Source: Candidatus Cloacimonadales bacterium | Lineage (GTDB): Bacteria; Cloacimonadota; Cloacimonadia; Cloacimonadales; JAIOQZ01 | Reading direction: 5' to 3' | Length of the DNA stretch: 64,000 nt | NCBI GenBank assembly: GCA_963665815.1 | Contig: OY762463.1 | Coordinates: 416,001-480,000 of the forward strand | Position numbers and translations under genes: made by a program | Notes under the pieces: generated by a model | What the model was told of the DNA's origin: nothing | What the model saw: only the letters and a program-made list of their open reading frames with translations | Database searches by the model: none | Shown here: piece by piece, positions 1,558-36,259 of the stretch | Layout: the number at the start of each line of letters is the position of its first letter | Numbering within the stretch: the first letter of the stretch is position 1

Positions 1558-1699
1558 TTGATTTGTAAGATAGTTATTAAATCTTTCTTTTTTTGTAAAG
1601 ATTATTATAACAAATTATTAACACATAGCTATATTGAGAGCTTTTTTAATTAGAATTGCTGATGAAATTATCCAGTTAAATAGTATTTGATATTAGAGA

Positions 1700-1724
1700 A
1701 AGGGCTGATTTATGATCAGCCCTG
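1700..1724 (-). terminator. Hairpin, probable intrinsic terminator of the C25 peptidase gene
   Basis: agggctgat-ttatg-atcagccct inverted repeat just downstream of the 1760 stop; followed by TTCT on the minus strand. Confidence 0.55.
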
Positions 1725-1759
1725 AAGTACAAAGTTATCTCAGCATCACGCCTATGAAT

Positions 1760-4700
1760 TTATTTGAGAAGAATACATTTCTTAATATCCTGTTCTTTTT
1801 CCGTATTAAGTCTATAGAAATAAACTCCGGAGCATACATCATCTCCTCTGTCGTTTTTACCCTGCCAGATAACAGAATTTTTTCCTTTTGAAAGCCTTGC
1901 ATTAACAAGCGTTCTTACTTTCTGTCCCTTGATATTATAAATATCAATTCTGACATGTGAGTTTTCAGCAAGTTTGAAGTCTATTCGCGTTTCAGGATTG
2001 AATGGATTAGGGTAGTTACCGGTTAATCCTGTCTTGAATTGATTCACGTCCTCATTAGCGTTATCTACAAGAATCAGTTCAACAGTATCTGTCGGTAGAG
2101 ATTCATATCCATCTGAAACAGACACTACAAAGTACTTAAGATTCAGTTCGTCTGAATAATTCTGAGACCAGGTTGTAGTTAAGGTAGTATCTACGGGTGT
2201 GAATATCTCGTTATTCATGCTTCTGTAAATGATATACTCATCTATTTCTTCCGGAGTAGAGCATGTCCAGTTAAGAGTTAAGGATCCGGTGTTGTCAGTA
2301 AGAGAAAGATTCTCCGGGGCTACGATAGATTCCATTATGATATCAAAATTGTATATTTGATTTGCATCAAAATCATTAGCAGGGCTTGTGTAATCCTTAT
2401 AACCGGGACAACTTGCTGTGAACCAGCCACTCATCTGAGGTACAGCAAGGTAATAAGTATTATCTGAATTTACTACTCCGCTTGTAAAGAACGTTTCAAT
2501 GCTTAAATTATCTGATAACGGATCAATTCTGCTGTCGATATCTCCTTTAACAAATGCAAATCCCTGATAGTGATTAACAACGGATTTCAGATCATCAATA
2601 TAGATGGTCAAACCTCCTGAAGGAACTTCTGACTTGATTCTTACTTTCATTAACTTATCACCATAATCAACCGAACTTACAAGTTCATTTATTTCTGTAG
2701 AAGTATTCTCATTGAGTGTAAGTAAATTAAACCAGATATCATCAAAGCCTACTTGAAGCGTATGAGTACCTCCTGTAGAGGAAATATAATATTTCATTGA
2801 TAATCTTGTGCTTGAAGTATTTAAACTGTAATATCTTCCGAGTTCAAGATATGATACATATGGATATGTTTGAGAATCATGGGCAAATACAAGTTCTTCC
2901 GAGCTTCCACCGGCAAAGCTTGTGGAGTCCGAAATTCCAAATTGTCCATTTGATGCTTTTATTCCAGATAACTCATGAGAATTAAAGTCATTATAAAGCA
3001 GAATTTCTTTAGAATCAACTTTAATATTGAATTTGTAATTCCTGTTGAAGTCTTCATGAGATATCGTCATAGTACAATCAAAGATATCATTTGTCATACC
3101 GTTTTGATATTCCATAGGGAACAGAAGATACTTTAGTGCATTGCCTTCCCAGAAATATATGGTTTTACTGTTAGTACTGCTGTCAAAAATCCCACTTTCT
3201 GAATTAACTGTTACATCAACATTGTTGAAGTCGATAGGGCTATTATTGTTGATTTCAAAGCAGCACATGAGAGAATCTCCAGTATTGAATTCTCTGTTAT
3301 TATCAAAAGTGAAGTAATACCTTTGAAGATCGAAATTACTCTTTTGCACATTTAGATCGACTACACGGATAATATTTTTATCTCCATTATGAATTGTCAG
3401 CTTCAATCTCAAAGCATTTTCTTCTAAGTTATCGTTTATATGCAGTCTTAACTTATTGAATGACATTTCTGATTCACCTGAATCAATGGCAGGAAAATTA
3501 ATCTCGTTATTGTAGACAATTACATTTTCATTAAAAACCTGCATCTTAACATACATACCATCTATGGTATTCAATGAATTATTTCTGATTTTGAGACTTA
3601 TGTTTGCATCGTATCCTGCGATTAACTCAGCTTCACCGAACTCATTGATAATATTTATAGATTCAATATTAATATCTGAATCAACAAAGGTCATGTCTAA
3701 GGTTTTAAACATTATCGCTTTGCCATCTGATAATTCTGATGCCGATGCTGGATAAGTGTTATTGAATGTATATTCCAGCCCGGATGATGCATTATAGTTT
3801 TGGATTCCCACAGTGGCATAGTTTCCATGCTGAACAATTAAATCTCCGTATTGTCCGACGTTATCATTATTGATGTCATTGTACTGAATCTTGATCTTAC
3901 TGTCTCCACTTATTGTCGGATACTCCATACAATCAAAGATGATCATCTGGAATGTCTGGTTCGAAAGAGTGTAGTCACCTTTCATGTCTTTCCATTCTAT
4001 TATGAAATACTTGTTTACATCATCATATTCATAGTAGATATTTCCTGTGTTAAGATCATCCCAGAAAGCGGCAATAATTGGTTTAGGTCCGCATATTGAA
4101 GGCAGATGCCAGTTCATGAAATCTCTGAGATCAACAGAACCGGGAGAAACCCAGCCATTACTGGATATTGTCAGTCTATCGTGTGTCGAACCGTAGAATC
4201 TGAAATTCATTGGTATGTCAACATCTATTCTGTCTCCATTATCTCCGTCATCAAACATATAGGTGTTTGTTCCGGTGTTTTCAATTTCTATCCAGTTGTA
4301 TGCCAGATCAGGGTCCGCGACTTCATCATTTTCCTCAAGACACACATACCCATATGCATCCGGCCCGGTAATTGACGATTGCGTAACATTTCCAAAGCAA
4401 ATAGTTAAAGGAATCGTCTGCTGAAAATCAATGTTAGATATCTTCAGCAGGAACTGTTCTTCTCGACCGGTATAAAAGCTGCTGTTGAAATTGGCTGAGA
4501 ACGCATCAGTTAAATTCAATGGAGTATCTAAAGACAGGCTTGCTATTGATTCCGTACTGTCTGTTAATACTATATTATCTCTTATAGGGCGCAGTGTAAG
4601 AGTAGTATTAGTAATATCCTGAGATCCTTGATTAGTAATATCCATACTTATGTAGAACTGCGTTTCAGGTATATCCATCTCTATTGCAACTGCATTCGAA

Positions 4701-7066
4701 ATTGTAATATCCGGAGCAGAAGCGTAAAGGTAGAAAGTTTCCTGCCAGGTTTCATTGTTTACTGTATCAGTATAATGTATTGTTACCGGAACTCTCATTC
4801 CGTCTGAAAGTGTGTTAATAAAATCAATATTCACATTCTGATCCGCCTGATACACCTGATTTGAGGTAAGCGAAGGTAATTGTATATAGTTATTGTTTAC
4901 CAGAACAAGAAAATCCGGAATTTCAAGCGTTACATTGATTGGGTTTGAAGCCGTATTGCTGTGGTTTTCGAATGTAAGCGATAAGTCTATTGCATCGTTC
5001 GGATGAATAATCGGAGCAGAATTACTGTTTACAAAAGAAAAATTACTCATTCTTACTCTCAAGTTATTCGAATTTATTGTCTGGGTGCTAACATCAGGAA
5101 TAAAATTGTGATACTTGCATACAAGATCAAACTCGTTTTCAAGCTCATCTTTAACAGGGATAACACATGTTCCGTTCTCTGCAGTTCCCGAAAAATATAC
5201 TGTAGAATCTGAAACAACTATTACTTCAGCATTAACCGGGTTTCCTTCATTATCTGCAACTTCAACTCTGAAAGAATTCATTCCTTCTTCAAGATTATCC
5301 GGTAGAGAAACCTGAAGCTGTTCAGGTGTTCCTGTCCATAAATGTAAAGCAGGATCTCCCATCAGGTTGTTCCAGTAGGAAAACTTGCTGACAAAATCGT
5401 GAGGATTAGTCGGGAAATTTCTCCACATTTCGAATTTTGCCTTTGCCAGAGCAATACCGGGTGAAAACTGTTTCTCCACAAATATTGTGTGATATATACC
5501 GGCATCGACAATATTGTTAAAAACTGTGTGTGTATAAGAAGTTGCCAGAGCTATTGCTGCTATAGCACCTTTTGGCGAAGTAGGGGTTCCAAGTCTGAGG
5601 AGTTCTTCCGGTCTGGATGATTCATTGCTTGCAAAATTACCTACAGCACAAGTGAGGAATACTGCAAGAGGTAGTTTATTCGTGTTGTCAAGCTGTATGA
5701 TATCATCGACTGTCCATCCGCTCATCCCATGAAATCCCCTATAATTAAAGTATGAGACTCCGCTGTTGATTTCATGAGTCATTACATAATCAAAATTGGA
5801 TACATATTCCTCGGTGAATGAAAAATTGGGATTGTTATCCTGAATCATCTGTTTTACCTGTCTTTTAGTATCAACACATGATGGACCTGAATCATCAGGA
5901 TCTCCAACAAGCAAAACTTTATTATACCAGTCACTGTTTCCTGCAGGTAGAAGTCCGAACTCATACTTGTAAATCTTGTTTACTATAACAATCAGCTCTG
6001 AGATATTTTCAAATGACAATCTTCCTACAAAAGCATCTGCCAGAATATCGTTCCCATCAAGCAGAGAATAATAATGATCACCCTCTCCGGTTGCATACCT
6101 TTCCGTTGGAATATCATAAGCTGTTCCTAAGGCATCTCCGGCAAGACATATAAACTCCGGTGGATTCTCCCAGTTATTATATGCGTCTAATAAATATGTT
6201 TTTATGTTCGATTTAGTTGCTTCTGCGTCAGAGAATTCTGCAATTTTTACATCAAATCCAAGATGTGTTTTAATGTTTGCATATTCATTCATCAAATCAC
6301 GAATGTCATTGTTTTCTCTATGGATTACAAGGATTGAAGGCCTTTGAAAATCTCCCGATTCCAGATTATTGTAGTTTAACAATGTTGTAGAAAAAAGCTT
6401 ATCAAATACTCTTGATTTTTTAATTACAGCATTTACAGGATTTGTAGTCAGGGAATTGTCCATGGACAGTGTAATTTCTGCTTTTTTAATAATTTGCAAC
6501 TGTCTGTCACCAGGATTATACCTGAATGGATTGACCGTAATTGCACTTACTCTCTGGTTGCGAATTACTCCCGGTTCGGATGCAGTACAGGATTTTGACG
6601 GATACAGGATATTTTTGCTGTATAATCCGGAATCAATAATAAATTCTGAAGATTTTGGCTTGCTCTCTGACTGTAACTCCTGCTGTGGATACAGATCAAT
6701 ATTGTCGATTATCTCAGATTCGATAATCTTAAGGCTGACAATTGGATTTCCTTTGTCCGGTAAAGCAATGATTGTGCTGACAGTTGGAATTTCAGGTTTC
6801 CCAAAATCTACAATGAAGCCTTTGGTTGCATGTTCAATTCGTTTATAAGTAATTCCTTTTACATTAATATCTGAAAGTGAATATTCACCCAGATTAAAAA
6901 TAATCTCCTCATTGCCCAGACTGCCCGATTTAATCTCGAAATTAGTTTCTGATGCAGCTATATTAAGCATTACAGATAACATTAAAATTATACCAACTAA
7001 CTTGTACACTTTATCCTCCTTAATAGCGAAAATTATGCAAGATATGTTCCAAAACGAATCGAACAT
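1760..7066 (-). CDS. Secreted gingipain-like C25 peptidase with propeptide, Ig-like modules and C-terminal FlgD-Ig/sorting domain (likely start GTG 7009)
   Basis: GKPEIP propeptide, LAGD, D..Y..LDGND..AD..VGRL, NYRGFHG...TCAVGNF catalytic region, NLMGDP, TGPDAYGY, AAFWDDL, C-terminal NYPNPFNPET...IYNIKGQ...SGVYFY; AGGAGG RBS upstream of GTG 7009. Confidence 0.85.
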   Translation of the reverse strand: MFDSFWNISCIIFAIKEDKVYKLVGIILMLSVMLNIAASETNFEIKSGSLGNEEIIFNLGEYSLSDINVKGITYKRIEHATKGFIVDFGKPEIPTVSTIIALPDKGNPIVSLKIIESEIIDNIDLYPQQELQSESKPKSSEFIIDSGLYSKNILYPSKSCTASEPGVIRNQRVSAITVNPFRYNPGDRQLQIIKKAEITLSMDNSLTTNPVNAVIKKSRVFDKLFSTTLLNYNNLESGDFQRPSILVIHRENNDIRDLMNEYANIKTHLGFDVKIAEFSDAEATKSNIKTYLLDAYNNWENPPEFICLAGDALGTAYDIPTERYATGEGDHYYSLLDGNDILADAFVGRLSFENISELIVIVNKIYKYEFGLLPAGNSDWYNKVLLVGDPDDSGPSCVDTKRQVKQMIQDNNPNFSFTEEYVSNFDYVMTHEINSGVSYFNYRGFHGMSGWTVDDIIQLDNTNKLPLAVFLTCAVGNFASNESSRPEELLRLGTPTSPKGAIAAIALATSYTHTVFNNIVDAGIYHTIFVEKQFSPGIALAKAKFEMWRNFPTNPHDFVSKFSYWNNLMGDPALHLWTGTPEQLQVSLPDNLEEGMNSFRVEVADNEGNPVNAEVIVVSDSTVYFSGTAENGTCVIPVKDELENEFDLVCKYHNFIPDVSTQTINSNNLRVRMSNFSFVNSNSAPIIHPNDAIDLSLTFENHSNTASNPINVTLEIPDFLVLVNNNYIQLPSLTSNQVYQADQNVNIDFINTLSDGMRVPVTIHYTDTVNNETWQETFYLYASAPDITISNAVAIEMDIPETQFYISMDITNQGSQDITNTTLTLRPIRDNIVLTDSTESIASLSLDTPLNLTDAFSANFNSSFYTGREEQFLLKISNIDFQQTIPLTICFGNVTQSSITGPDAYGYVCLEENDEVADPDLAYNWIEIENTGTNTYMFDDGDNGDRIDVDIPMNFRFYGSTHDRLTISSNGWVSPGSVDLRDFMNWHLPSICGPKPIIAAFWDDLNTGNIYYEYDDVNKYFIIEWKDMKGDYTLSNQTFQMIIFDCMEYPTISGDSKIKIQYNDINNDNVGQYGDLIVQHGNYATVGIQNYNASSGLEYTFNNTYPASASELSDGKAIMFKTLDMTFVDSDINIESINIINEFGEAELIAGYDANISLKIRNNSLNTIDGMYVKMQVFNENVIVYNNEINFPAIDSGESEMSFNKLRLHINDNLEENALRLKLTIHNGDKNIIRVVDLNVQKSNFDLQRYYFTFDNNREFNTGDSLMCCFEINNNSPIDFNNVDVTVNSESGIFDSSTNSKTIYFWEGNALKYLLFPMEYQNGMTNDIFDCTMTISHEDFNRNYKFNIKVDSKEILLYNDFNSHELSGIKASNGQFGISDSTSFAGGSSEELVFAHDSQTYPYVSYLELGRYYSLNTSSTRLSMKYYISSTGGTHTLQVGFDDIWFNLLTLNENTSTEINELVSSVDYGDKLMKVRIKSEVPSGGLTIYIDDLKSVVNHYQGFAFVKGDIDSRIDPLSDNLSIETFFTSGVVNSDNTYYLAVPQMSGWFTASCPGYKDYTSPANDFDANQIYNFDIIMESIVAPENLSLTDNTGSLTLNWTCSTPEEIDEYIIYRSMNNEIFTPVDTTLTTTWSQNYSDELNLKYFVVSVSDGYESLPTDTVELILVDNANEDVNQFKTGLTGNYPNPFNPETRIDFKLAENSHVRIDIYNIKGQKVRTLVNARLSKGKNSVIWQGKNDRGDDVCSGVYFYRLNTEKEQDIKKCILLK

Positions 7067-7170
7067 TAAATATTAATAAAAAGGACTTCATGAAGCATAA
7101 AGTCCTGATTTATATTGCTTGTTACTTTTTCTTAGCTATGTTCAACAATACTGACAAAAGTCATTTTACA

Positions 7171-9102
7171 CTATTTCAACAACATACACTTTCTGAGCTT
7201 CTTTGATTTCCCATTAACCTTGAAGTTATAGAAGTATACTCCTGAAGCTACAGGATCGTTATTCTCGTTATCTCCATTCCAGACAATTACATGAAGACCT
7301 CTTGGGGTTAATCCTTCATCAATAGTTTTGACTTTCTGTCCTTTTACATTATAGATTTCAAGTGTTATCCGGGCAGGATCAGCGAGAGAATACTCAATTG
7401 ATGTGGTTGGATTAAACGGATTCGGGTAATTTCCGGATACTTCCAGGATTTCCGGTACTGAGAACCCAAAATCAGCATATTCATCTTCTCCTGAAATCGG
7501 ATTTACTGTTGTAGGAGGATTATTAACGAGATATGGATATCCGTTGTTGATATCCGGATTAATGTTCCAGATATCTTCATCAAGGGTATCATCAAAAGGA
7601 TTATATACAAAATCGAAAGGAGTGTCCAGAAAATCATTGCTGAGGTCAGTGTATGTGGAAATATTTGTCATTTGAGAATGGGTTAGTCCCAAATTATCTA
7701 TATCGGAATTATGTCTATACAAAAATGAAAATACATTGGACGAATCATTATCCCAGAAGATATTACTCACTACAGAATTGTCAATATCATCATAATAAAT
7801 AAAGATACAACTGCCTGTTTCCAATGAATCAAATCTTCCTGAAAATATGAAATTCCTGATGTGGGAATTACTATACTGAGTAGCTAATGCTGCGGCAACT
7901 GTATTAATATTAATTGTAGCTTTGACATATGAATTTTGTATTGTATCATTTAATGTTGAATTGATTAACCCTACACTGATCAATGAAGCGGAGAGTTTTC
8001 CGGAAGAATAACATTCACTGATAGTGGTTTCGCATGTTACATCAATCAATCCTGAAGTACGAATGGAGAATATCGAATCATTTCGGATACCTAAATCTCC
8101 CATTGTTGAGCAATTTGAAATTAATGACTCTGATGCATAATTTATCAATCCGGTAGTAATCTGTCCAGCAACGTTTCCTCTATTATGGTTCTTTAAAAAT
8201 TTAGTATTTGTACATACCATTGCTATGCCGGATGCATTGCCGTCAGATATAGTAATACTGTTAGAAACACAGTTTTCGATTTTTGATAAATAATATAATC
8301 CTGAGTAATAGTGCGATGACCATGAATCTAAAGCAATTCCTGCTGCTTGTTCTTCTCCGTAAATGAAACCGTTAGAAAAACAGTGTTTTATTGTGGATTC
8401 AAAGGAATTGTTTACAATTCCTGCTGCATGTTTAGCATCAATCTTACCCTTAAATGTACATCTTAAGATATATGATAATTCGATACTGTTGCATATTCCT
8501 CCAGCGGATCTTCCTGCACTGATTGATCCTTCAAATGTGCATTCTTCAAACCGTAAACCTCGATTCTTCAAACAGATGCCGCCGGCATCTTCTTCAGCAA
8601 AAAGCTCTGCATCTGAATAACATTGATATATTTTTAAGGGATTTGCCTCTCCACATACTGAAGCAGAATACTTACCTCTGATTTTGGCGTCTCTCATAAT
8701 AATATTTCTTATTGTACTGCCTTGGCAGTATTTAAACAATGCAGCGATTTCCAAAGGTCTGTTTATGTACAGATTAGATATATAATAGTTCTGCCCATTG
8801 TAACTTCCGGTAAAGGGATTTTCCTCTGTACCGACAGGTCTGAATCCTACTGTCGAATCCGGAGTATTGGGATTATTATCATGGTCTCTCAGTTCCCAGT
8901 TGATTGTTTCAGACATGTCTATATCAGCAGTTTGAATAAAATAACAGTTCCAGACATCTTCAGTTATTGTCAGCCATTGCAGGTGATCTACACAAGATAT
9001 CTCATATGGAGCTTCCTCTGTGCCATCTCCAATTATATCGGTGCCCGATAATATAGAAATCATACTCATTACAAATAAAATATAAACAATGTTTCTTCTC
9101 AT
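7171..9102 (-). CDS. Secreted GLUG/beta-helix-like protein with C-terminal FlgD-Ig/sorting domain
   Basis: Signal peptide; GDGTEEAPYEI...QTADIDM...F.G.YNGQNY.I.NL; repeated AGGI units; INNGYPYL; NYPNPFNPTT C-domain; GGAGG RBS. Confidence 0.75.
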   Translation of the reverse strand: MRRNIVYILFVMSMISILSGTDIIGDGTEEAPYEISCVDHLQWLTITEDVWNCYFIQTADIDMSETINWELRDHDNNPNTPDSTVGFRPVGTEENPFTGSYNGQNYYISNLYINRPLEIAALFKYCQGSTIRNIIMRDAKIRGKYSASVCGEANPLKIYQCYSDAELFAEEDAGGICLKNRGLRFEECTFEGSISAGRSAGGICNSIELSYILRCTFKGKIDAKHAAGIVNNSFESTIKHCFSNGFIYGEEQAAGIALDSWSSHYYSGLYYLSKIENCVSNSITISDGNASGIAMVCTNTKFLKNHNRGNVAGQITTGLINYASESLISNCSTMGDLGIRNDSIFSIRTSGLIDVTCETTISECYSSGKLSASLISVGLINSTLNDTIQNSYVKATININTVAAALATQYSNSHIRNFIFSGRFDSLETGSCIFIYYDDIDNSVVSNIFWDNDSSNVFSFLYRHNSDIDNLGLTHSQMTNISTYTDLSNDFLDTPFDFVYNPFDDTLDEDIWNINPDINNGYPYLVNNPPTTVNPISGEDEYADFGFSVPEILEVSGNYPNPFNPTTSIEYSLADPARITLEIYNVKGQKVKTIDEGLTPRGLHVIVWNGDNENNDPVASGVYFYNFKVNGKSKKLRKCMLLK

Positions 9103-13197: not shown

Positions 13198-13830
13198 ATG
13201 AAAGATATTGATAAGACTGAACTTAAAATAGTTGAAGATCCAAAAGACAATACAGATGAAGAACCGATTATTCTTGATGAAAGACTGGAAAGACCAACTT
13301 TCAAAAAGAGGAATCATATTTTGTTTTTGGCATCCCTCTTATGCGTAGTTTCATTGTTTTTCCCATATTTCAAACCGGAAGATACTGCCGGAGTAATGAC
13401 AATCAATTTATCTGTTATGAAGAAAGAAGTGCATGTAATTGATACACCTTCTTTGTTTGTTGTTCTCTGGAAAAACGCTACCGGAAAGGAAGTAGAGAAC
13501 TATCAGCCGAATCTACGTATTATGTTCAAGAGCGAGAATGATTTTCTGAGAGAATCATCCAAGCTGCTGCTGCATTTGTTTCCTCTGCTGATGCTTTACT
13601 ATTTCTTTCAGTTTCTGACTGATACTGTATTATTAAAGCGAATCCGCTTTCTCTTGCCGGAGCTGATCGCTTATTTCTTCACGACACTCTTTGCGTTAAA
13701 GATAAACTATGATAATGATTACTCTGTATTCGATATGTATGGAATCGGAAGTTATCTGGCTGGTGGGGCATTGGTACTGGCAATTATAGCCTATTTTGTG
13801 CATTCTAAAAAAGAAGAGAATCAGTATTAG
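13198..13830 (+). CDS. Hypothetical membrane protein
   Basis: 210-aa ORF with GGGAG RBS and about four hydrophobic helices. Confidence 0.7.
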   Translation: MKDIDKTELKIVEDPKDNTDEEPIILDERLERPTFKKRNHILFLASLLCVVSLFFPYFKPEDTAGVMTINLSVMKKEVHVIDTPSLFVVLWKNATGKEVENYQPNLRIMFKSENDFLRESSKLLLHLFPLLMLYYFFQFLTDTVLLKRIRFLLPELIAYFFTTLFALKINYDNDYSVFDMYGIGSYLAGGALVLAIIAYFVHSKKEENQY

Positions 13831-13909
13831 CTGATGCATGCATCAGCTCTACAGGTTTGTGCGAACAAGAGAAAGGTTTAACTGTAGAGACGTTGCATGC
13901 AGCGTCTAC
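13828..13909. repeat. REP doublet (REPIN-like), copy 1
   Basis: agctgatgcatgcatcagct+CTAC (13829-13852; GTAG-REP on minus strand) and GTAG+agacgttgcatgcagcgtct (13884-13909; plus strand), 31-bp spacer. Confidence 0.85.
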
Positions 13910-14002
13910 TAATGAGAAGTACACTATGTGCATCCTCATTAAGAAGAAATTAAACTAAGCATTGCATACAATGTTTTATGTAAAAAAATAAGGATTACAG
14001 GT

Positions 14003-14635
14003 GTGAAGGGAAAGAACACTTTTTACCGTTCTGATACTATCAGACATAAGCATTGGGATTACAGGTCAAATGGAGTCTACTTCATCACAATTTGTACACA
14101 ATGTAGGAAAAACTACTTTGGTAGGATAGATAATGGAGTAATGAATTTATCAAAAGTCGGTATCATTGTAGATTTATGTATCAATGAAGTTCCTTACCAC
14201 GCTAAAGATGTTATGGTTTCAAATTATATAGTGATGCCCAATCATATACATATGTTATTGCAGAAGTCTTCTAACAATGAAAAAATAGCTGATGCATGTA
14301 TCAGCTCTACAGACTTGCCTGAACAGGAAAGGTGTTCAAAAGATGTAGAGACGTTGCATGCAACGTCTACTAATGAACATGATTATAGGACTTTGGCTGT
14401 AGATGTCTATTCAAGAATCTCACCTAAATCAGGATCAATTTCCACAATTGTAAGATCTCTTAAATCAGCAGCATCGAGGCATTCAAACAGATTGGGATTG
14501 AGTTTGAAGTGGCAAAGTGGCTTTTATGACCATATTGTCAGAGACTTAAAAGAACTTGAGATGATCAATGAATATATTACGCAGAATCCTGTAAACTGGA
14601 GTAAAGATGATTATTATAAAGAATATGAAGTATGA
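14003..14635 (+). mobile_element. REP-associated tyrosine transposase (RAYT/TnpA-REP, IS200-like Y1 HUH)
   Basis: R..HWDY...GVYFITICT, VMPNHIH (HUH), STIVRSLKS, WQSGFYDHIVRD...EYITQNP.NW; GTAG-REPs adjacent. Confidence 0.9.
14286..14370. repeat. REP doublet copy 2, inside the RAYT coding sequence
   Basis: tagctgatgcatgtatcagctctac (14286-14310) and gtagagacgttgcatgcaacgtctac (14345-14370), each one mismatch from copy 1. Confidence 0.85.
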
Positions 14636-14699
14636 CTTTGGTGTGAGCCCTTATGAATGGTCCCGAGACATTCGCAATGTTGGACTTCCCATAACAAAA

Positions 14700-14823
14700 T
14701 GTCCGAACCTTGATTTAAAGGATTGAAGGATTTCATGATTCTTTACGTCGCATAAGCGACGTTTGTAGAAGCTAGTGAAAAATTCTCCTCCGATGGAGGA
14801 GTACGTCGAAGACGGGAGGTGGT
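14700..14823. repeat. Cluster of GC-rich hairpin elements between RAYT and NACHT-LRR genes
   Basis: acgtcgc-ataa-gcgacgt (14745-14762), ctcctcc-gat-ggaggag (14785-14801), cgtc-gaa-gacg (14804-14814), plus ggatt-type short repeats at 14710-14740. Confidence 0.55.
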
Positions 14824-14865
14824 GTTCCTTAATATTCTCCAAAACATTCTATTCTCGAACCAAAC

Positions 14866-17472
14866 CTAATTATAGTCAGATAAAATCGCTGTATTAGGCA
14901 TGTTTTCTTTTAACCAATCAATATGTGATTTTGGGATGGGGTTGATCTTTATGTCTAATACTCGAAGTTTCTTCAATTTAATGATAGTTTTAGGTAGTTC
15001 CTCTAATTTGTTTCCCATTAAATCAAGTAATTCCAGATTTAACAACCCACCAATTGATTCCGGGAGTTCTGTAAGTTGATTGTTATCTAACCTAAGTAGC
15101 TGAAGGTTAACTAATTTACCAAATGATTCCGGAAGTTCTGTAAGTTGACTATTATATAATAAAAGTTCTTGGAGATTAACTAAATTTCCAATTGATTCAG
15201 GAAGTTTAGTAAGTTGATTGTTATCTAACAAAAGTTCTTTGAGGTTAGCTAAATTTCCAATTGAGTCTGGAAGTTCTGTGAGTTCATTATGGCTTACTTC
15301 AAGTGCTTTCAGATTTATAAGTTTACCAATAATTTCAGGAAGAGTTCCAATTCTGTTAACGCTTAGATCAAGTTTTTCCAATTTCTGTAAATCGCCTATG
15401 GTTTCGGAAAGTAGCTCCAGATCAAAATTAAAAGCAAGATCTAAACCTGAAAGATTAGTGAGAGCAGAAATCCTGTCATCAAGTTTGTAAAACCGTCCTG
15501 AGAAAGTAGAATTCGAGAAATCTGCCCCTTCAAAATTAGTTTCAAGAATCTCATCTCTTACTACAATATTTTTCAAATTACAATTTCTTAAATCCAAACC
15601 ATTAAAATATTCATCACCAAGTAGTTGCAGTATCATTACCGCGTTTCCAGCCTGCCAGTAGTATTCTTCCGGACTGTCAATTTTCCCTTCTGTCGCTGTT
15701 TGCTTCAGTTTATCAATATCTTTTATCTGTTCGCTTATAAACTTAGCAATTTCCTTTGAGATCTGAGCCTTCCCGAAGTTCACAATATTTCCGGATTCAA
15801 TCTCTTTGGTAAAGCTTACTGCAACAAGGTAATCTCTGAAAGACTTGTGGGAGATTCTGAAGTGATTATCCTTCTCACGGGTCATGAAATCAAAGCAGAG
15901 AAATTTATCAAGGTCGTTTTCAATTTGTCCCTGAGTTTTACTCTTATAGTTTTCGTTGTTTTTCATGTGCTCGGAAATTTCTTTAACATCCATGGAAAGT
16001 CTGTCTTCGTTAATATAAAGTTCTACAGCAACTTGCTCTAATAAACTCCTTCTATCAAAGGAATCTGTTTCCAGATAACGATTTTTCTTTGCGACTCTTC
16101 TACATTCAGCATCAATCGCTTCTTTATATAAATCAGAAACTTTAAAATCTCCTGATTTCAATTTGTTTTTTATTTTCTTAAAATATTTACATACCAGATC
16201 AAGGAGAACCGGTCTCTCCATAGTATCTGAAAGCTTCTCTTTCAATTTTTCTGCTTCTTTGGGATTAATCCCGTGCGTAACAAGGAATTGATTAATCTGC
16301 TCATCATTGAATAGCTTTAAGTGCAATATATTTTCTTTGTACTTATCAAATACTTTTCTCAGTTCCTCATCTGTTCTGAAATATTCTTCACGAGTTGTAA
16401 GGATGAATTTAGATTTTTTGCAGTCCTCGACAATCTTCAATATTTTGCTGAAATTAATTCTTTTACTCTCGGTACTATTTCTGATTGCCATTTCATCAAA
16501 GCCATCAAAAACAACAGTAAATTCATCTTTTGCTGCTTTATCAGCAAATTGATCATAATCTAAAGATTTAAGACGCTTCCCTACAAGCTGAGCATTTATG
16601 TAATCTTCAATATCTTCTTCGCGGAACTTGCGGAGTGGAAAAATCATAGGAATTCTGTTATTATTATCCTCAACCTTTAGGTCACATTTCTTATCAAGCA
16701 GCTTACAGGTTAGATTATATTTTATGTAATCGCATAGTGTAGTTTTTCCTGTTCCATACTCACCCATAATAATCAGAAAGTTACTGCTGTTATTATTCAG
16801 CCAGTTGTTAATGTATTTGTAAACAGGGTCATAGTTGACTATATCGTATTTTTCTTCATCTTTTGCGTCAGGTTTCAGATCTACAAGGTTCTTTTTTGGT
16901 TTCATTGTCCTGGCGTTAAGGTCTATATATTTATTATCCTTAATGAATTTATTGTGGAATTTGGCATAATCTATTTCCAGTTTCTTTTCTATCTGATAGT
17001 CGAAGGATTTCTCTATAGAATCCTTTGTTAGTTGTATCATAAAATCATACTGCCGCATTTCAAGAGGAGTTGAAACTTTTGAAAGATAAAATTTGTACTG
17101 TGTATGTATTTCTTCTAATGCGGTAATTATTTCGTCATCTTTATTTTCTGAGTTGTATTCTATATACGTATCATGACATCTGACTGCTTTTAGAAAACTG
17201 GAATTGATTGGATTACTAATATAAGCCCTGACTTGTTCAACAATAAATGGTTCAATGAAAAAGCTTCTAAGAAACCCTGAATCCTGATTAATGCAAAATT
17301 TTATATAAGCATGAATGTATAAACTGTCGAAAGTATTTGATAGCATGTCTATACCTACATCATTTAAAACTTTGACTACTGCATGATTTTCAGATAAGCT
17401 TTTCTTCAGTTTCTTTATTGCCGGTTTTGCTATTAGTCCTGCAGCTGTTGAAAGTACTTTACTTAGTGCCAT
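14866..17472 (-). CDS. NACHT (STAND) NTPase with short pentapeptide segment and C-terminal leucine-rich repeats (NLR-like)
   Basis: Walker A IMGEYGTGKTT, Walker B VVFDGFDEM, FILTTR, RPVLL, FRISHKSFRDYLVA, NFEGADFSNSTF, about 8 LRRs of type LTELPESIGNLxNLxxLxLxxN. Confidence 0.88.
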   Translation of the reverse strand: MALSKVLSTAAGLIAKPAIKKLKKSLSENHAVVKVLNDVGIDMLSNTFDSLYIHAYIKFCINQDSGFLRSFFIEPFIVEQVRAYISNPINSSFLKAVRCHDTYIEYNSENKDDEIITALEEIHTQYKFYLSKVSTPLEMRQYDFMIQLTKDSIEKSFDYQIEKKLEIDYAKFHNKFIKDNKYIDLNARTMKPKKNLVDLKPDAKDEEKYDIVNYDPVYKYINNWLNNNSSNFLIIMGEYGTGKTTLCDYIKYNLTCKLLDKKCDLKVEDNNNRIPMIFPLRKFREEDIEDYINAQLVGKRLKSLDYDQFADKAAKDEFTVVFDGFDEMAIRNSTESKRINFSKILKIVEDCKKSKFILTTREEYFRTDEELRKVFDKYKENILHLKLFNDEQINQFLVTHGINPKEAEKLKEKLSDTMERPVLLDLVCKYFKKIKNKLKSGDFKVSDLYKEAIDAECRRVAKKNRYLETDSFDRRSLLEQVAVELYINEDRLSMDVKEISEHMKNNENYKSKTQGQIENDLDKFLCFDFMTREKDNHFRISHKSFRDYLVAVSFTKEIESGNIVNFGKAQISKEIAKFISEQIKDIDKLKQTATEGKIDSPEEYYWQAGNAVMILQLLGDEYFNGLDLRNCNLKNIVVRDEILETNFEGADFSNSTFSGRFYKLDDRISALTNLSGLDLAFNFDLELLSETIGDLQKLEKLDLSVNRIGTLPEIIGKLINLKALEVSHNELTELPDSIGNLANLKELLLDNNQLTKLPESIGNLVNLQELLLYNSQLTELPESFGKLVNLQLLRLDNNQLTELPESIGGLLNLELLDLMGNKLEELPKTIIKLKKLRVLDIKINPIPKSHIDWLKENMPNTAILSDYN

Positions 17473-17559
17473 TTGTCACTCCCATTTTATTATGGGCAAA
17501 GTACATATTGTTAATGAGATTATGTCAATGTAATAATTTTCATAGATAATGCAGGTGAT

Positions 17560-17690
17560 GATCTTAAACGGAACAATAATCATTGTTAACAACAAGAGAA
17601 TGCCATTCAGTTAAAATCTCCAAAACTGTTGTCATCAGTTATTCGTGGTTTTAAGATTCGATCAACAAAACTCATGAGAATGAACTGATA
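17560..17690 (+). pseudogene. Decayed second RAYT fragment with degenerate REP-like palindrome
   Basis: One frame reads ...QLKSPKLLSSVIRGFKIRSTKLMRMN*, matching the RAYT 'SP.K..SS.IRGFK...TK' helix; aacaataatcattgtt palindrome just upstream. Confidence 0.5.
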
Positions 17691-17724
17691 CCATGACTTC
17701 AGCAGGTTAAAATCATTTTATGTA

Positions 17725-28664: not shown

Positions 28665-29897
28665 ATGAAAAGGGTTCTATTAATTGCCGCAATGATTATG
28701 GTAGGCGCTTTGTTGTTTGGGGAAATTGAGTATGACAGTGGATTTAACTATAATTCGTTTAAAAGCACACATGATTATACTATTATTAAGAAGAAGTATT
28801 TTAAGGAACCATTAGCAAATGAGTTTCTGGTCTCAAGTCCTACAGAAACAAGTGCAGGTGAACTTGTGCTGGAGCGTATATATGAAAAGGATCACAGAAA
28901 AACATTAGTATACTTTGATCAGAATCTGAACAGAGTTAACATGGGAACACACAAAAACTGGATCTACACAAAAGAAGGTAAATATATTTGGTATGCAGAC
29001 TGGATAAATGAAGCGATTAGTGATTATGAACAAAAATCAGTCACAACGGATTTTGGATTATACAAGAAGCAAACAAATGGTTACTCAAAAACTACTACAC
29101 AGGTTAATACGGAGGAATTCTTCAAAGTTTATGACAGTGGTTACATTTCATTATCAAGTGAGTATTTTGAAGAGGATGCCCATTACTATGAGAATGGCTT
29201 CTTAAATATGAAAACTAATGAAGAAATCAGTATAAACCTGTTAAGTGAGTATTCAAAACCTGGAGACGATTTTGAGTACAGTCTTGCATATATTGATGAA
29301 AGTAAAGTTGTATACACTTTTTTCTTATATTATTACAATGAGAAAATTGGGGGTGGGCCTTTTAATGGTAATGCAGGAATTGTTTATTACAATGTTGATG
29401 GGAGTATAAAAAAAATGATTGAGCTCCCTTACAAGTATGCTGGTTGTGTTAGTACATCACCCAATGGAGATGTTATAATTGTAGAAGAACTGACAGGAAG
29501 ATATTTCACCGATGGTCCCACAGGAAATAGAGCTCTCGTTTTCGAAGATGGCCGTATTGTTACAGGCAAGAGTATTGGATCAGAGCTTTGGTCATCTCGC
29601 TGGTCTGCAGATGGATCTATGCTTTTCTCCAGTGGATGCCTTATCGATGTACAAGCCGGTAAAAAAATAATGTCAATTAAAGGAGATGTTTATCCGTCTA
29701 ACAAAGTAGCTGGAAGAGTACTTGCAATTACAGATGATAGACTGAGAGTATTTGATATAGAAACGAAAGAATTGATAATGTCATATCCAATGAATACTGC
29801 AACAGGATACTATGGGATTTCAGGAGATGGGAATGAGATTATCGGTGTGTCCCAGACAAATTATGTGAAAATTAAAATTGGTGAGAGGAAGAAATGA
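28665..29897 (+). CDS. Secreted beta-propeller-like protein, array paralog 1
   Basis: Signal peptide; WD40/TolB-like turns STSPNGD, WSADGS, GISGDGNE, RVFDI.TKE. Confidence 0.8.
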   Translation: MKRVLLIAAMIMVGALLFGEIEYDSGFNYNSFKSTHDYTIIKKKYFKEPLANEFLVSSPTETSAGELVLERIYEKDHRKTLVYFDQNLNRVNMGTHKNWIYTKEGKYIWYADWINEAISDYEQKSVTTDFGLYKKQTNGYSKTTTQVNTEEFFKVYDSGYISLSSEYFEEDAHYYENGFLNMKTNEEISINLLSEYSKPGDDFEYSLAYIDESKVVYTFFLYYYNEKIGGGPFNGNAGIVYYNVDGSIKKMIELPYKYAGCVSTSPNGDVIIVEELTGRYFTDGPTGNRALVFEDGRIVTGKSIGSELWSSRWSADGSMLFSSGCLIDVQAGKKIMSIKGDVYPSNKVAGRVLAITDDRLRVFDIETKELIMSYPMNTATGYYGISGDGNEIIGVSQTNYVKIKIGERKK

Positions 29898-30143: not shown

Positions 30144-31382
30144 ATGAAAAGGGTTCTATTAATTGCCGCAATGATTATGGTAGGCGCTTTGTTGTTTGGG
30201 GAAATTGAGTATGACAGTGGATTTAACTACAGAACTAAAGAGGGAACACATAATTATACTGTTGTAAAGCAAAAAACGTTTAAGAAACCGTTAGCTTATA
30301 AGTATGTACTATCTCCACCAACAGAAACAAGTGCGGGTGAACTCCTATTTGAGCATGATGTTAAAAAAATAAATGGAAAAACTACTTATATCCTGAATAG
30401 TTTTAACAGAAACTTGGATAGAGTGAGTATGGGGAGTAATGGTGTGTGGCTATGGACTAAGAACGGTAAGTATCTTAGAAACAGGGTATTTGGTTATGAA
30501 AGATTATCAAATAATCAGAGAAAGAGGGCTCTGCTGAAAGATGTAATATATAAGTATTCTAACAACACATATAAACCAATAAACTATATAAAACCTAAAC
30601 AGGAGATAACAGAAATTACTAATAACGGTTATTTCAAGATTACAGATTTATATGATGATTTAGGACCATATTGGCAAGGGGTCCAGAAGTTCAACATGGA
30701 TAAGGCAATAATATTTAATTTTGAGTATGATGCTGACAAGCCAAATTACAGCATAGAAAGAAGACTAGAGTACGTTGATGACTCAAAGATTGTTTTTTCA
30801 TTTTTCTCATATTATGCAAGTGAGGAATCAATGCACGAAATTTTGGATGCTCGAGCAGGTATAATCATATACAATCATGATAGAACATTACGGAGGAAAA
30901 TTGATTTACCCTTTAGAGGATTAGGGGAAGTTTACTCATCACCTGATGGAAGCGTTTTTGCATTAGTTGAAGGTGACCCTCATGGTATAATTAATGATAA
31001 AAATAGTGCACTTCTGTATGAAGATGGGCGTATAGTAACAAGTGAGTCAATAGGATGCAGCCTCTCACCTGATTTCTGGTCTGCAGACGGCTCTTTAATG
31101 ACAACAAACTGTGGGGATTTGATTGATGTTATGAAAGGGAAAAAATTAATGAGTATCAAAGAGGCTGGGCCTCCATCAAATGCTTCAGCAGGAAGAATAC
31201 TTGTTACCTATAAACATATGATAAAAGTATTTGATATAAAGACAAAAGAAATGATAGCTTCATTCTCCATTGGAAGTGGTGCACTTGGTTATAACTTTAG
31301 TATATCTGGTGATGGAACTGAAGTTCTTACCGTTACAGACATGAAGTATACTAAAATTAAAATTGGTGAGAGGAAGAAATGA
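30144..31382 (+). CDS. Secreted beta-propeller-like protein, array paralog 2 (divergent core)
   Basis: First 86 nt and last about 30 nt identical to paralog 1; interior diverged but keeps PTETSAGEL, EDGRIVT, WSADGS, ISGDG. Confidence 0.8.
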   Translation: MKRVLLIAAMIMVGALLFGEIEYDSGFNYRTKEGTHNYTVVKQKTFKKPLAYKYVLSPPTETSAGELLFEHDVKKINGKTTYILNSFNRNLDRVSMGSNGVWLWTKNGKYLRNRVFGYERLSNNQRKRALLKDVIYKYSNNTYKPINYIKPKQEITEITNNGYFKITDLYDDLGPYWQGVQKFNMDKAIIFNFEYDADKPNYSIERRLEYVDDSKIVFSFFSYYASEESMHEILDARAGIIIYNHDRTLRRKIDLPFRGLGEVYSSPDGSVFALVEGDPHGIINDKNSALLYEDGRIVTSESIGCSLSPDFWSADGSLMTTNCGDLIDVMKGKKLMSIKEAGPPSNASAGRILVTYKHMIKVFDIKTKEMIASFSIGSGALGYNFSISGDGTEVLTVTDMKYTKIKIGERKK

Positions 31383-31628: not shown

Positions 31629-32861
31629 ATGAAAAGGATTCTATTAATTGCCGTAATAATTATGGCAGGTGTTTTAATGTATGGGGAAATTGAGTATGAC
31701 AGTGGATTTAACTATAATTCGTTTAAAAGCACACATGATTATACTATTATTAAGAAGAAGTATTTTAAGGAACCATTAGCAAACGAGTTTCTGGTCTCAA
31801 GTCCTACAGAAACAAGTGCAGGAGAACTTGTGCTGGAGCGCTTTTATGAAAAAGGAGACAGAAGAACCTTAGCATACTTTGATCAGAATCTGAACAGAGT
31901 TAACATGGGAACACACAAAAACTGGGTCTACACAAAAGAAGGTGAATACATTTGGTATGCCGACTGGACAACTGAAGTAACTAGTGATAATGAGCAAAAA
32001 TCAGTCACAACGGATTTTGGATTATACAAGAAGCAAACAAATGGTTACTCAAAAACTACTACACAGGTTAATACGGAGGAATTCTTCAAAGTTTATGACA
32101 GTGGTTACATTTCATTATCAAGTGAGTATTTTGAAGAGGATGCCCATTACTATGAGAATGGCTTCTTAAATATGAAAACTAATGAAGAAATCAGTATAAA
32201 CCTGTTAAGTGAGTATTCAAAACCTGGAGACGATTTTGAGTACAGTCTTGCATATATTGATGAAAGTAAAGTTGTATACACTTTTTTCTTATATTATTAC
32301 AATGAGAAAATTGGGGGTGGGCCTTTTAATGGTAATGCAGGAATTGTTTATTACAATGTTGATGGGAGTATAAAAAAAATGATTGAGCTCCCTTACAAGT
32401 ATGCTGGTTGTGTTAGTACATCACCCAATGGAGATGTTATAATTGTAGAAGAACTGACAGGAAGATATTTCACCGATGGTCCCACAGGAAATAGAGCTCT
32501 CGTTTTCGAAGATGGCCGTATTGTTACAGGCAAGAGTATTGGATCAGAGCTTTGGTCATCTCGCTGGTCTGCCGATGGATCTATGCTTTTCTCCAGTGGA
32601 TGCCTTATCGATGTACAAGCCGGTAAAAAAATAATGTCAATTGAAGGATCGGTTTATCCCTCAAATAAGTCAGCAAGTAGAGTTCTAGTAAAATATGGAA
32701 ATCGATTAAGAGTATTTGATATTAACACAAAAGAATTGATAATGTCTGTACAAGTAAATCCATATACAAGTCATTTTCGAATTTCTGGTGATGGAACCGA
32801 GATTATCGGTGTGTCCCAGACAAATTATGTGAAAATCAGGATTGATGGGAGAAAGAAATAA
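31629..32861 (+). CDS. Secreted beta-propeller-like protein, array paralog 3
   Basis: 31995-32642 matches paralog 1 29031-29678 with one synonymous difference; different signal peptide and C-terminal blade. Confidence 0.8.
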   Translation: MKRILLIAVIIMAGVLMYGEIEYDSGFNYNSFKSTHDYTIIKKKYFKEPLANEFLVSSPTETSAGELVLERFYEKGDRRTLAYFDQNLNRVNMGTHKNWVYTKEGEYIWYADWTTEVTSDNEQKSVTTDFGLYKKQTNGYSKTTTQVNTEEFFKVYDSGYISLSSEYFEEDAHYYENGFLNMKTNEEISINLLSEYSKPGDDFEYSLAYIDESKVVYTFFLYYYNEKIGGGPFNGNAGIVYYNVDGSIKKMIELPYKYAGCVSTSPNGDVIIVEELTGRYFTDGPTGNRALVFEDGRIVTGKSIGSELWSSRWSADGSMLFSSGCLIDVQAGKKIMSIEGSVYPSNKSASRVLVKYGNRLRVFDINTKELIMSVQVNPYTSHFRISGDGTEIIGVSQTNYVKIRIDGRKK

Positions 32862-34852: not shown

Positions 34853-36259
34853 TTATGTCTTTGCAAGAATAAGTTTCTTGAGTTCCTTAAGGGTTATCTT
34901 CTCCTTTCCACTCAACACATATTCCAGAATCGGCAGCGTATACTGCAGGGTTCCTGTGTTAATAATTATCTTCCAAAGCCATTCGAATTTTTTCCAGGCT
35001 CCGGTGTATAAAAGCTGTCTGAATCTTCTTTCAGTTCCTTCAAGCTTGAGAGATGATCTGATAATATTGTTCCATTTGTAAAACTCATTATATGACCACC
35101 AATAGCCTTCCTCAAGTTCCTCCGGAGATAGTTTTACGGGCTGGAAGACTGTATTTCTGGTATTGTAAAGATCCCAGTTTTCGGTAATGATTCTTCCTGA
35201 AGCCTTCATTCTGCTGTGCAGTGGAGTACCCGGATATGGTGTCAGAATATGATATGTCGCTGTTGTCAGTGAATGTTCGATTCCCCAGTCAACAGTCCTT
35301 TTGAATACATCCTTGTCATCATTATCCATACCGAAAACGAAAGACCCGTTTATCATGATTCCCAGGCTTTGTAGTCTCCTGACAGCCGTCTCATACTCAT
35401 GATTAAGATTCTGAAGCTTGTTATTCTCACGGAGATTTTCAGGTGAGAAAGTCTCGAATCCAACAAAAACACTTTTCATTCCTGCATCAGCAGCTTTTTC
35501 AATCAGATCACCCTGGATTATGGATTTAACAGTTGCAGCACCTTGAAAGACTCTGTTCATTCCTTTCATCTCTCTGAAGAGATCAGACATCAGATTGTAG
35601 TCAGCAAATAAATGATCATCCAGAAAATAGAGGTGTTTCCCGGGAAGTCTGTCGATATCTGTCAGTATGTGATCAAGGGTTTTTGTATAGAAAGAGTTTC
35701 CACCTTTGAAGAAAGCGTCTTTGTAACAGAAATCACAGTGGTGAATACAGCCTCTTGAGACAATCATAGTATTGGGGACCAGATATTTCTGTCGTTTAAT
35801 CAGTTCACGCCTGATCGGGGGATGGTTCTTTATACATCTGAATTTTGGTGCTGCATATATTTTGCGAGGCTGCCTGTTTCTGAAATCATGAAGGAATTCG
35901 GGGAAAGTCTGTTCTCCCGGTCCTGAGAAGATAGAGTCTGCATGTTGCAATGCCTCTTCCGGACAGGATGTAACGTGTAATCCACCCATTGCAACATGGA
36001 CTCCCTTATTTCTGTATTTATCTGCTATTTTATAAGCCCTGTAGGCATTTGTTATATATACTTGGATTATGACCAGATCAGGTTGATCATCTGTGTTCAG
36101 CTTTTCTACATGCTGATCTATCAGCTCCACTTCGTCGTCTGCATTCAGATAGGCTGCCAGAGTAGCCAATCCCAGAGGTGGGAATAACGAATACTTTATT
36201 GCTCTGAATAGAGGATTGCCTGCTTCCATTATTGCAGGGAGTATCATTTTAACTTTCAT
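34853..36259 (-). CDS. B12-binding domain radical SAM protein
   Basis: PPLGLATLAA, GGLHVT, SRGCIHHCDFC (CxxxCxxC), FVGFE, GSFVFG.D.D, LTPYPGT. Confidence 0.92.
   Translation of the reverse strand: MKVKMILPAIMEAGNPLFRAIKYSLFPPLGLATLAAYLNADDEVELIDQHVEKLNTDDQPDLVIIQVYITNAYRAYKIADKYRNKGVHVAMGGLHVTSCPEEALQHADSIFSGPGEQTFPEFLHDFRNRQPRKIYAAPKFRCIKNHPPIRRELIKRQKYLVPNTMIVSRGCIHHCDFCYKDAFFKGGNSFYTKTLDHILTDIDRLPGKHLYFLDDHLFADYNLMSDLFREMKGMNRVFQGAATVKSIIQGDLIEKAADAGMKSVFVGFETFSPENLRENNKLQNLNHEYETAVRRLQSLGIMINGSFVFGMDNDDKDVFKRTVDWGIEHSLTTATYHILTPYPGTPLHSRMKASGRIITENWDLYNTRNTVFQPVKLSPEELEEGYWWSYNEFYKWNNIIRSSLKLEGTERRFRQLLYTGAWKKFEWLWKIIINTGTLQYTLPILEYVLSGKEKITLKELKKLILAKT

Follow-up and report, generated by a model that had tools for sequence, protein, structure and literature searches.

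A NACHT protein related to animal NLRs, with an NNH5-type N-terminal domain and leucine-rich repeats, in a Cloacimonadales genome: a candidate stand-alone phage sensor

Reading frame and NTPase module

The DNA analysed here, referred to as the window, is a stretch of 64,000 nucleotides (nt) from a Candidatus Cloacimonadales bacterium (genome G000; GenBank assembly GCA_963665815.1, contig OY762463.1, positions 416,001 to 480,000 of the forward strand). On its minus strand, at 14866..17472 of the window, lies the complete coding sequence, stop codon included, of P0001, an 868-residue STAND (signal-transduction ATPase) NTPase related to the NLR proteins of animals. ORF (open reading frame) calling and translation gave one uninterrupted frame with no internal stop. 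The start codon is backed by the alignment, in which the N-termini of homologues likewise open with MAL. From N- to C-terminus the protein consists of a helical N-terminal domain of the NNH5 type, a linker, a NACHT NTPase module, a degenerate pentapeptide-repeat stretch and leucine-rich repeats (LRRs).

The P-loop NTPase domain (residues 229-400; 16273..16788, minus strand, as for all features of P0001) is recognised by two Pfam profiles. With the whole protein, nSTAND3 (PF20720) scored 31.4 bits against a cut-off of 27.2. NACHT (PF05729; cut-off 26.7) fell just short in hmmscan, with 26.0 bits, and passed with 29.9 bits when the genome was searched in six frames. Conservation was judged on a family alignment of 18 sequences, and all of its 52 invariant columns are retained in P0001. 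These include Walker A GEYGTGKT (residues 237-244; 16741..16764), invariant in 18/18 aligned members, and Walker B VVFDGFDE (residues 319-327; 16492..16518), in which D323, G324, F325, D326 and E327 do not vary. LTTREEYF, with R361, and RPVLL at residues 420-424 are further motifs that fall in invariant columns. A linker of two beta strands and one helix (residues 179-228; 16789..16938) leads into the NTPase domain; in the alignment it is 86-93% identical to P0029, a close relative described below.

Residues 401-618 (15619..16272) were assigned to helical domain 1, a winged-helix domain and helical domain 2 from the secondary structure of the model and its match to NLRC4, NOD2 and NLRP3. This region contains the winged-helix motif FRISHKSFRDYL with the invariant H542 (codon at 15847..15849), which we take, without structural superposition, to be the counterpart of NLRC4 H443. 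Mutation of the winged-helix histidine hyperactivates bNACHT16 and bNACHT25, according to the available text of Kibby et al. (10.1101/2022.07.19.500537). By its Walker motifs, its profile score and its fold, in which the nucleotide-binding domain is followed by helical domain 1, the winged-helix domain with the conserved histidine and helical domain 2, P0001 is a NACHT-clade STAND NTPase. An earlier reading of this DNA, made from the letters alone and called here the sequence-only reading, had noticed an intact Walker A/B NACHT module and a winged-helix motif, and both are borne out by the invariance of these residues across the 18 family members.

Pentapeptide stretch and leucine-rich repeats

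Beyond the NACHT module, about seven units of a degenerate pentapeptide repeat can be read at residues 623-661 (15490..15606). The pentapeptide stretch named in the sequence-only reading is partly borne out, by these units and by its alignment with homologue regions that exceed the Pfam cut-off (e.g. 31.7 bits in P0004); it falls short in its own score, which is 16.4 bits for Pentapeptide (PF00805) against a cut-off of 20.2. Short beta strands were modelled in this stretch with pLDDT 62-74.

The presumed sensor is made of eight LRRs with a period of 23 residues, of the LxxLxLxxNxLxxLPxxIGxL type, and a C-terminal cap helix (residues 674-858; 14899..15453), as assigned by Pfam, repeat count and DNA periodicity. 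The units start at residues 674 (irregular), 698, 721, 744, 767, 790, 813 and 836. They contain exactly the segments DLSVN, EVSHN, LLDNN, LLYNS, RLDNN, DLMGN and DIKIN that had been listed for about eight repeats of this length. In the whole-protein Pfam scan LRR_14 was matched at E 1.7e-25 (90 bits), LRR_8 at E 4.4e-17 (62 bits) and LRR_4 at 55 bits. The period is mirrored in the DNA by a 69-nt periodicity at 15025-15300, with 72-75% identity. Most family members carry instead 22-residue 'NxIxDISPL' LRRs, which best match those of internalin, SDS22 and Roco proteins. The occurrence of the 23-residue type in P0001 and of the 22-residue type in most relatives suggests that the sensor subtype is exchangeable within the family.

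The nearest solved structure to the LRR arm is Leptospira LIC12234 (4tzh; 40% identity, TMt 0.90, root-mean-square deviation 2.5). This likeness, and scores of 79-98 bits for the NCBIfam models XopAC, XopAE, XopL and LIC_11051 on the LRR part, could point to a secreted or surface protein that interacts with a host, in the manner of the Xanthomonas Xop effectors, the Leptospira LRR proteins and internalins. The scores are, however, far under the curated cut-offs of 450-1000 and concern the LRRs only, whereas a cytosolic-type NNH5-NACHT module takes up 620 of the 868 residues. No hydrophobic N-terminal segment is present, nor, unlike in the cargo proteins encoded nearby, a C-terminal sorting domain of the type IX secretion system (T9SS). 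A secreted role is hardly credible for P0001.

Predicted structure and likeness to animal NLRs

The full-length model (pLDDT 80.4, pTM 0.60) is of low confidence only at residues 20-26, 196-203 and 662-692. Its best matches in the Protein Data Bank (PDB) were NLRC4 (4kxf, E 7.3e-15), NOD2 (5irm) and NLRP3, with E to 1e-12 and 12-15% identity. At the sequence level, phmmer with residues 200-620 gave no match to PDB sequences at E <= 1, and an alignment-based profile search against the PDB was swamped by LRR proteins.

NLRC4, NOD2 and NLRP3 thus head the structural matches, and like P0001 they have NACHT followed by LRRs. The description of P0001 as a bacterial NLR-like NACHT-(pentapeptide)-LRR protein is sustained by its motifs, its family and this NLRC4-like model. 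The likeness is partial, the whole-chain TM-score of the animal NLRs to the P0001 model being only ~0.3. Animal NLRs carry CARD, PYD or BIR at the N-terminus, none of which was found in P0001 by Pfam scans; the pentapeptide spacer between NACHT module and LRRs is a feature of P0001, unlike animal NLRs; and the LRR subtype of P0001 is nearest to Leptospira LIC12234, not to the LRRs of NLRs.

The N-terminal domain

Residues 1-178 (16939..17472) form an all-alpha domain, which Pfam and an AlphaFold 2 (AF2) model identify as a diverged NNH5 (PF22736, NACHT N-terminal Helical domain 5). It occupies the position that effectors take in relatives. The profile search proposed in the sequence-only reading gave NNH5 at E 1.1e-5 and 25.9 bits with hmmscan of residues 1-220 (cut-off 27), a match that covers profile positions 8-98 of 134 only, and at 27.3 bits in the six-frame search, where it was the sole NNH5 match in the 3.96-Mb genome. 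In the whole-protein Pfam scan of P0001, NNH5 had no match at E <= 0.1. When residues 1-225 were compared by phmmer with 1.84 billion representative proteins, 21 matches were obtained at E <= 1e-3, P0001 itself and P0013 among them. A Pfam scan placed NNH5, at 27-85 bits, in 17 of the 19 others, with NACHT behind it in all that are long enough. Since 17/19 of these matches and 15/17 full-length homologues have NNH5, the N-terminus of P0001 is not a new domain, and the suggestion of an unrecognised, possibly new domain of about 200 residues has to be withdrawn in favour of a borderline member of a named family.

The AF2 model of residues 1-225, built on a 34-row alignment (pLDDT 87.4, pTM 0.73), has eleven helices at residues 2-177 and then two short strands. 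A structure search, likewise proposed earlier, was run with it and gave no solved relative: the best Foldseek match in the PDB had E 0.94, and the best VIA-align score against 48,161 chains was Z 4.6, with top rows (P450, stressosome and others) that are tied, helical and unrelated. The missing solved relative does not show a new fold. In the ESM Atlas, residues 1-180 gave best scores of 0.88, 0.87 and 0.85 for clusters of the NNH3/NNH1 type, all below 0.9 and a lead only. The conserved positions of the domain are mostly aromatic or hydrophobic, with Y52, H54 and the invariant Q160 in addition. A prediction of a four-copy complex of residues 1-180 scored 0.01 against a mark of 0.42; it gave no answer and counts neither way. 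A text search of the literature for NNH5 returned no paper about this domain.

A membrane-active N-terminal helix was also considered. The hydrophobic moment reached at most 0.44, a value like that of internal helices, and no transmembrane-like segment is present; the idea is unsupported, though not excluded by the data.

Family and sequence divergence

A search of 5.8 billion proteins, from which proteins shorter than 477 residues were excluded, gave 17 full-length homologues (E 3.6e-110 to 1.3e-55, 26-34% identity, 63-97% coverage), mostly in metagenome-assembled genomes (MAGs) of Bacteroidota and Cloacimonadota, and also in Aminicenantes. By precomputed Pfam lists NNH5 is present in 15/17, NACHT in 17/17, an LRR family in 16/17 and a pentapeptide family in 10/17; three of the homologues were also re-scanned with Pfam. 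The proteins with NNH5, NACHT, pentapeptide and LRR parts (e.g. P0002-P0017; 'leucine-rich repeat domain-containing protein' of Saprospiraceae at NCBI) are collinear with P0001 over 86-97% of the length, with 28-33% identity, and have the invariant NACHT motifs, the domain order and the single-gene organisation in common with it. The NNH5 and pentapeptide parts of P0001 are more diverged than theirs and borderline on Pfam. By these comparisons P0001 is best placed as a somewhat divergent member of a catalogued family. Literature searches found no experimentally tested member of the NNH5-NACHT-pentapeptide-LRR family. Among more distant relatives of the NACHT and pentapeptide core (23-27% identity), a restriction-endonuclease family (PF04471) is listed for P0022 and P0024 and a caspase family (PF00656) for P0021, as known from Pfam lists that do not give domain order.

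The NNH name originates in the survey of bacterial NACHT proteins by Kibby et al. (10.1101/2022.07.19.500537). In the available text of that survey NNH, Pp (pentapeptide) and LRR all stand in the domain key, and LRR and pentapeptide repeats are classed as sensors of the 'antigen-receptor type'. The architecture of P0001 is already known, because homologues carry NNH5, NACHT and LRR and the survey catalogues these domains. The sequence-only reading held the NACHT-LRR pairing to be less common in bacteria; NACHT with LRR and pentapeptide sensors had already been described there.

The closest relative of P0001 is P0029, a 447-residue entry that is probably truncated and that fell under the length limit of the homologue search. 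The two proteins are 53% identical overall, and the identity is distributed very unevenly: 45% over residues 1-60, 7-15% over residues 61-150, 90-93% over residues 181-270 and 58% over residues 291-448. The core of NNH5 would thus seem either to have been swapped by recombination or to evolve far faster than the NTPase domain, a choice that one pair of sequences cannot decide. Such a mosaic appears to fit diversification of the conflict type or recombinational replacement of the N-domain. In the passages available, Kibby et al. read N-domain volatility of this kind as the mark of an arms race against phage inhibitors (10.1101/2022.07.19.500537).

Organisation of the locus

The P0001 gene has a spacer of 252 nt upstream. 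A GC-rich terminator-like hairpin followed by a T-run was found by hairpin scan at 14785..14801 (minus strand), 65 nt past the stop codon; this terminator is only suggestive, because the number of such sites equals the shuffle expectation. The promoter scan was uninformative (14 sigma-70-like sites against 14.1 expected), Bacteroidota promoters being outside the models of the tool. Upstream and co-directional lie a LytTR/histidine-kinase pair and an RND efflux operon. Downstream and convergent are an IS200/Y1-like ORF, a 210-residue ORF and a transketolase-like gene.

Gene context was extended to the homologues by calling ORFs in 12 family loci and scanning 98 neighbours with Pfam. No neighbour gene was conserved across the 12 loci, which supports a single-gene system. 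The gene had been described as standing alone, and its own spacer, the terminator-like hairpin and this lack of a conserved partner agree.

Several profile scores (NACHT, NNH5, pentapeptide) are borderline or below cut-off, and model confidence is low in the linker at residues 662-692, as might be found in a decaying, non-functional remnant of a horizontally acquired gene. Against decay stand the uninterrupted frame of 868 codons, the retention of all 52 invariant columns, and the possession of its own spacer and terminator-like site. A remnant is quite improbable.

Distribution of the gene

The P0001 gene is single-copy in G000. Comparison with G001, a 100% complete genome of the same genus, by way of conserved flanks showed that a segment at 14537..17724, consisting of the gene and both spacers, has no counterpart there. 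The flanks themselves are kept, with 96% nt identity for the LytTR gene and 93-94% for the transketolase gene and two ORFs of about 210 residues. In G001 a distance of 53 kb separates the flanks, and the DNA of this interval maps elsewhere in G000.

Homologues of residues 1-620 (E <= 1e-20) were found in 6/232 sampled related genomes, G000 included. The five others belong to one different family and are 34-43% identical, and 0/7 genomes of the gene's own family in this sample have such a homologue. In a set of 40 other genomes, six matched P0001, through LRR residues 664-855 only. The absence from G001, exactly at a synteny breakpoint, and the presence in 6/232 genomes show that the gene is accessory and patchily distributed. 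The accessory spot seen in the sequence-only reading is thereby upheld, and the gene is not a conserved core gene of its relatives. Its GC content is 32.9%, against 36.0 +/- 2.3% for 2.6-kb windows of the genome (7.7th percentile).

The surroundings were also said to be repeat-rich. This is true in a mild form: the region downstream of the gene holds two pairs of REP-like palindromes and a single IS200/Y1-like ORF. The ORF, at 14003-14635 (plus strand), is similar to IS200/Y1 transposases and possibly RAYT-like; Y1_Tnp matches its C-terminal half only (residues 141-195, E 1e-5), and it is kept in G001 with 93% nt identity. The palindromes, AGCTGATGCATG(C/T)ATCAGCT and AGACGTTGCATGCA(G/A)CGTCT, lie at 13828-13915 and 14286-14376, one pair within this ORF, at about residues 95-125, and the second immediately upstream of the ORF. 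Of the second palindrome, ~13-18 copies occur in the genome at <= 2-3 mismatches.

A direct repeat of 10 nt, TCTCCAAAAC (14836-14845 and 17617-17626), was considered as an insertion scar and set aside as uninformative. By estimate, about four chance matches of this kind are expected in 5 kb, and neither copy lies outside the segment specific to G000.

Defence context of the homologue loci

Conflict or mobile-element genes adjoin the gene in 5/12 homologue loci. By Pfam, the neighbours are XisI and DUF4062-kinase-FGE-sulfatase at L020, a pentapeptide-TIR protein and an integrase at L022, and caspase-WD40 and DUF4384 at L025. At L023 a WYL-HTH regulator lies directly upstream, with an SF1 helicase and a pair of DUF4276 and AAA_21 genes. 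At L030 the gene is preceded by an integrase and followed by a TPR protein that overlaps it. As a sign of association with defence, this proportion, taken without a background rate, is suggestive.

At L030, from a Bacteroidota MAG, the NLR-like ORF of 1254 residues (1679-5443) overlaps the TPR protein of 953 residues (5430-8288), and the integrase directly upstream is a tyrosine integrase. This arrangement may represent a variant with two genes that is carried by a mobile element.

Interpretation as a bacterial NLR-type sensor

We consider it somewhat probable that P0001 is a stand-alone bacterial NLR-type phage sensor, that is, a STAND NTPase of the 'bNACHT' type. The bNACHTs of Kibby et al., and bNACHT16 especially, are built, like P0001, of three parts, an N-domain, NACHT and a repeat sensor; the comparison is one of layout, not of sequence. 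As in P0001, they are usually solo genes with their own promoter and have the conserved winged-helix histidine. That study tested 27 bacterial NACHT genes chosen as representatives and found protection against phage in members of different clades, and the LRR-bearing bNACHT16 was made toxic by mutation of the winged-helix histidine, so far as its available text goes (10.1101/2022.07.19.500537). Avs and other defence STANDs in PADLOC are likewise solo STAND NTPases that combine a repeat sensor with an output domain at the N-terminus, as does P0001; P0001 is of the NACHT clade, not of the Avs clade, and matches no PADLOC model beyond mad8.

A number of observations weigh against a role in phage defence. 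The PADLOC check put forward in the sequence-only reading was run and did not bear the idea out: P0001 fits no curated defence model, its one match being mad8 at E 7e-4 over residues 222-435, and among 26 ORFs of the window no defence gene flanks it, the weak matches in the window being distant (PDC-M51B/VakA at 913-1557 and PDC-M51A at 34853-36259). EruA, the antiphage NACHT model of NCBIfam, scored 33 bits against a cut-off of 1000. In 7/12 homologue loci the neighbours are housekeeping genes only. A search of sequencing runs for the segment listed the source sample only and no RNA run. The legend of Fig. S3 on the tested bNACHTs, in the available part of that study (10.1101/2022.07.19.500537), names NNH1 only and no NNH5. 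Within NNH5 itself, inspection of the conserved positions revealed no recognisable catalytic motif, and no transmembrane segment is present (maximum Kyte-Doolittle 19-mer 1.23, with moderate amphipathicity).

Several of these observations would suit an NLR-type STAND switch outside defence, a signal-transduction ATPase that regulates some process of the cell, with LRRs that sense an endogenous or environmental ligand and with NNH5 as a protein-protein adaptor. The P0001 locus is not a defence island, 7/12 homologue loci are of housekeeping character, and NNH5 bears no enzymatic signature; of 589 STAND clades, moreover, 198 are defence-associated and 391 unclassified in the available text of a 2026 preprint (10.64898/2026.01.04.697583). 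A patchy accessory distribution and absence from the sister species are, however, atypical for a housekeeping regulator. The co-directional LytTR two-component system upstream is kept in G001 without the P0001 gene, the genome has no second NNH5 protein as a pairing partner, and NACHT-core relatives carry restriction-endonuclease or caspase domains. A switch of this sort is possible but rather doubtful.

P0001 could also be a defence NLR in which NNH5 serves as an adaptor only and recruits a separately encoded host effector after oligomerisation. Kibby et al. recognise non-catalytic N-domains of an 'adaptor' class, through which endogenous effectors may be recruited (10.1101/2022.07.19.500537, available text). 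No partner gene is conserved in the 12 loci, and G000 has no other ORF with NNH5, both of which argue against this arrangement; we regard it as unlikely.

The analysis establishes the anatomy of P0001, its family, an NLR-like predicted structure, the single-gene organisation and the accessory distribution. If P0001 is a stand-alone phage sensor, its ligand, oligomerisation and output can be pictured by analogy. At rest, the LRR/pentapeptide arm would keep the NACHT module closed and ADP-bound, with H542 touching the nucleotide as in NLRC4. A phage protein, or a host protein perturbed by phage, would bind the variable LRR surface. Nucleotide exchange at the Walker A/B site would then drive ATP-dependent oligomerisation into a wheel, a step that is experimental for bNACHT11. 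The clustered NNH5 would finally give a non-enzymatic signal leading to growth arrest or to death by abortive infection, which is the least certain step.

For this last step bNACHT11 (clade 14) is the best mechanistic precedent, as a NACHT protein with a non-enzymatic N-domain and, like P0001, no enzymatic effector. Binding of an activator to bNACHT11 leads to heptamers in which the short non-enzymatic N-terminus is clustered, with plasmolysis and cell death (10.1101/2024.12.17.629029, available text). Its N-terminal extension of about 45 residues has an MDPIT motif and its sensor is SNaCT, whereas P0001 has a helical NNH5 of 178 residues opening with MALSK and an LRR sensor. We propose, tentatively, that NNH5 may itself be a non-enzymatic death effector, a helical domain of about 180 residues that is toxic only once clustered by NACHT and whose core (residues 61-150) is diversifying under phage inhibitors. 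Together with the LRR sensor, this would make the family a compact counterpart, in bacteria, of NLRs with helical effectors, of which the plant CC-NLRs are an example. The contrast between 7-15% identity in the core and 90-93% in the adjacent NTPase segment, seen between the two closest relatives, is the observation that supports such diversification.

If functional, P0001 adds a branch with NNH5 and LRRs to the NLR-related defence repertoire of bacteria, in an environmental lineage in which few defence systems have been studied. With its intact motifs, a confident model of the N-domain and a known position for a hyperactivating histidine mutation, it is a small single-gene test case for NNH5 function. 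For annotation, the "unknown" N-terminus belongs to a family already named (NNH5), and the bacterial NACHT-LRR pairing was already described. The first description of the protein was accurate, while the novelty of its N-domain and of its domain pairing is not upheld; the remaining interest lies in the role of NNH5 and in its hypervariable core.

Other features of the window and genome

A second NACHT-domain ORF is present elsewhere in the genome (G000:C1:3310599-3311093, plus strand; locus L082), in an open frame of 1137 residues with a NACHT score of 35.8 bits and no NNH5 match. A weaker third candidate at C1:2742090 scored 22.9 bits in a frame of 1393 residues, likewise with no NNH5 match.

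The flanks of the P0001 gene are 93-96% identical at the nt level between G000 and G001, as compared with 72-86% for other matched blocks, and the neighbourhood of the locus shows extensive rearrangement of gene order. Three tandem paralogues of about 410 residues are encoded at 28665-29897, 30144-31382 and 31629-32861 (plus strand), with no Pfam or PADLOC match. The first two have an identical signal-peptide-like N-terminus of 29 residues and are only 44% identical overall. DNA related to these paralogues adjoins the LytTR gene in G001 (L017 2775-4013) and occurs also at about 1237641 in G000, and such repeats may have contributed to the rearrangement of G000 relative to G001.

At 1760-7066 (minus strand) the window encodes a gingipain-like Peptidase_C25 protein of 1768 residues, which has a propeptide and, at its C-terminus, a T9SS sorting domain. 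It is adjoined by the gene of a second T9SS cargo protein at 7171-9102 (minus strand), and the pair indicates type IX secretion in this organism.

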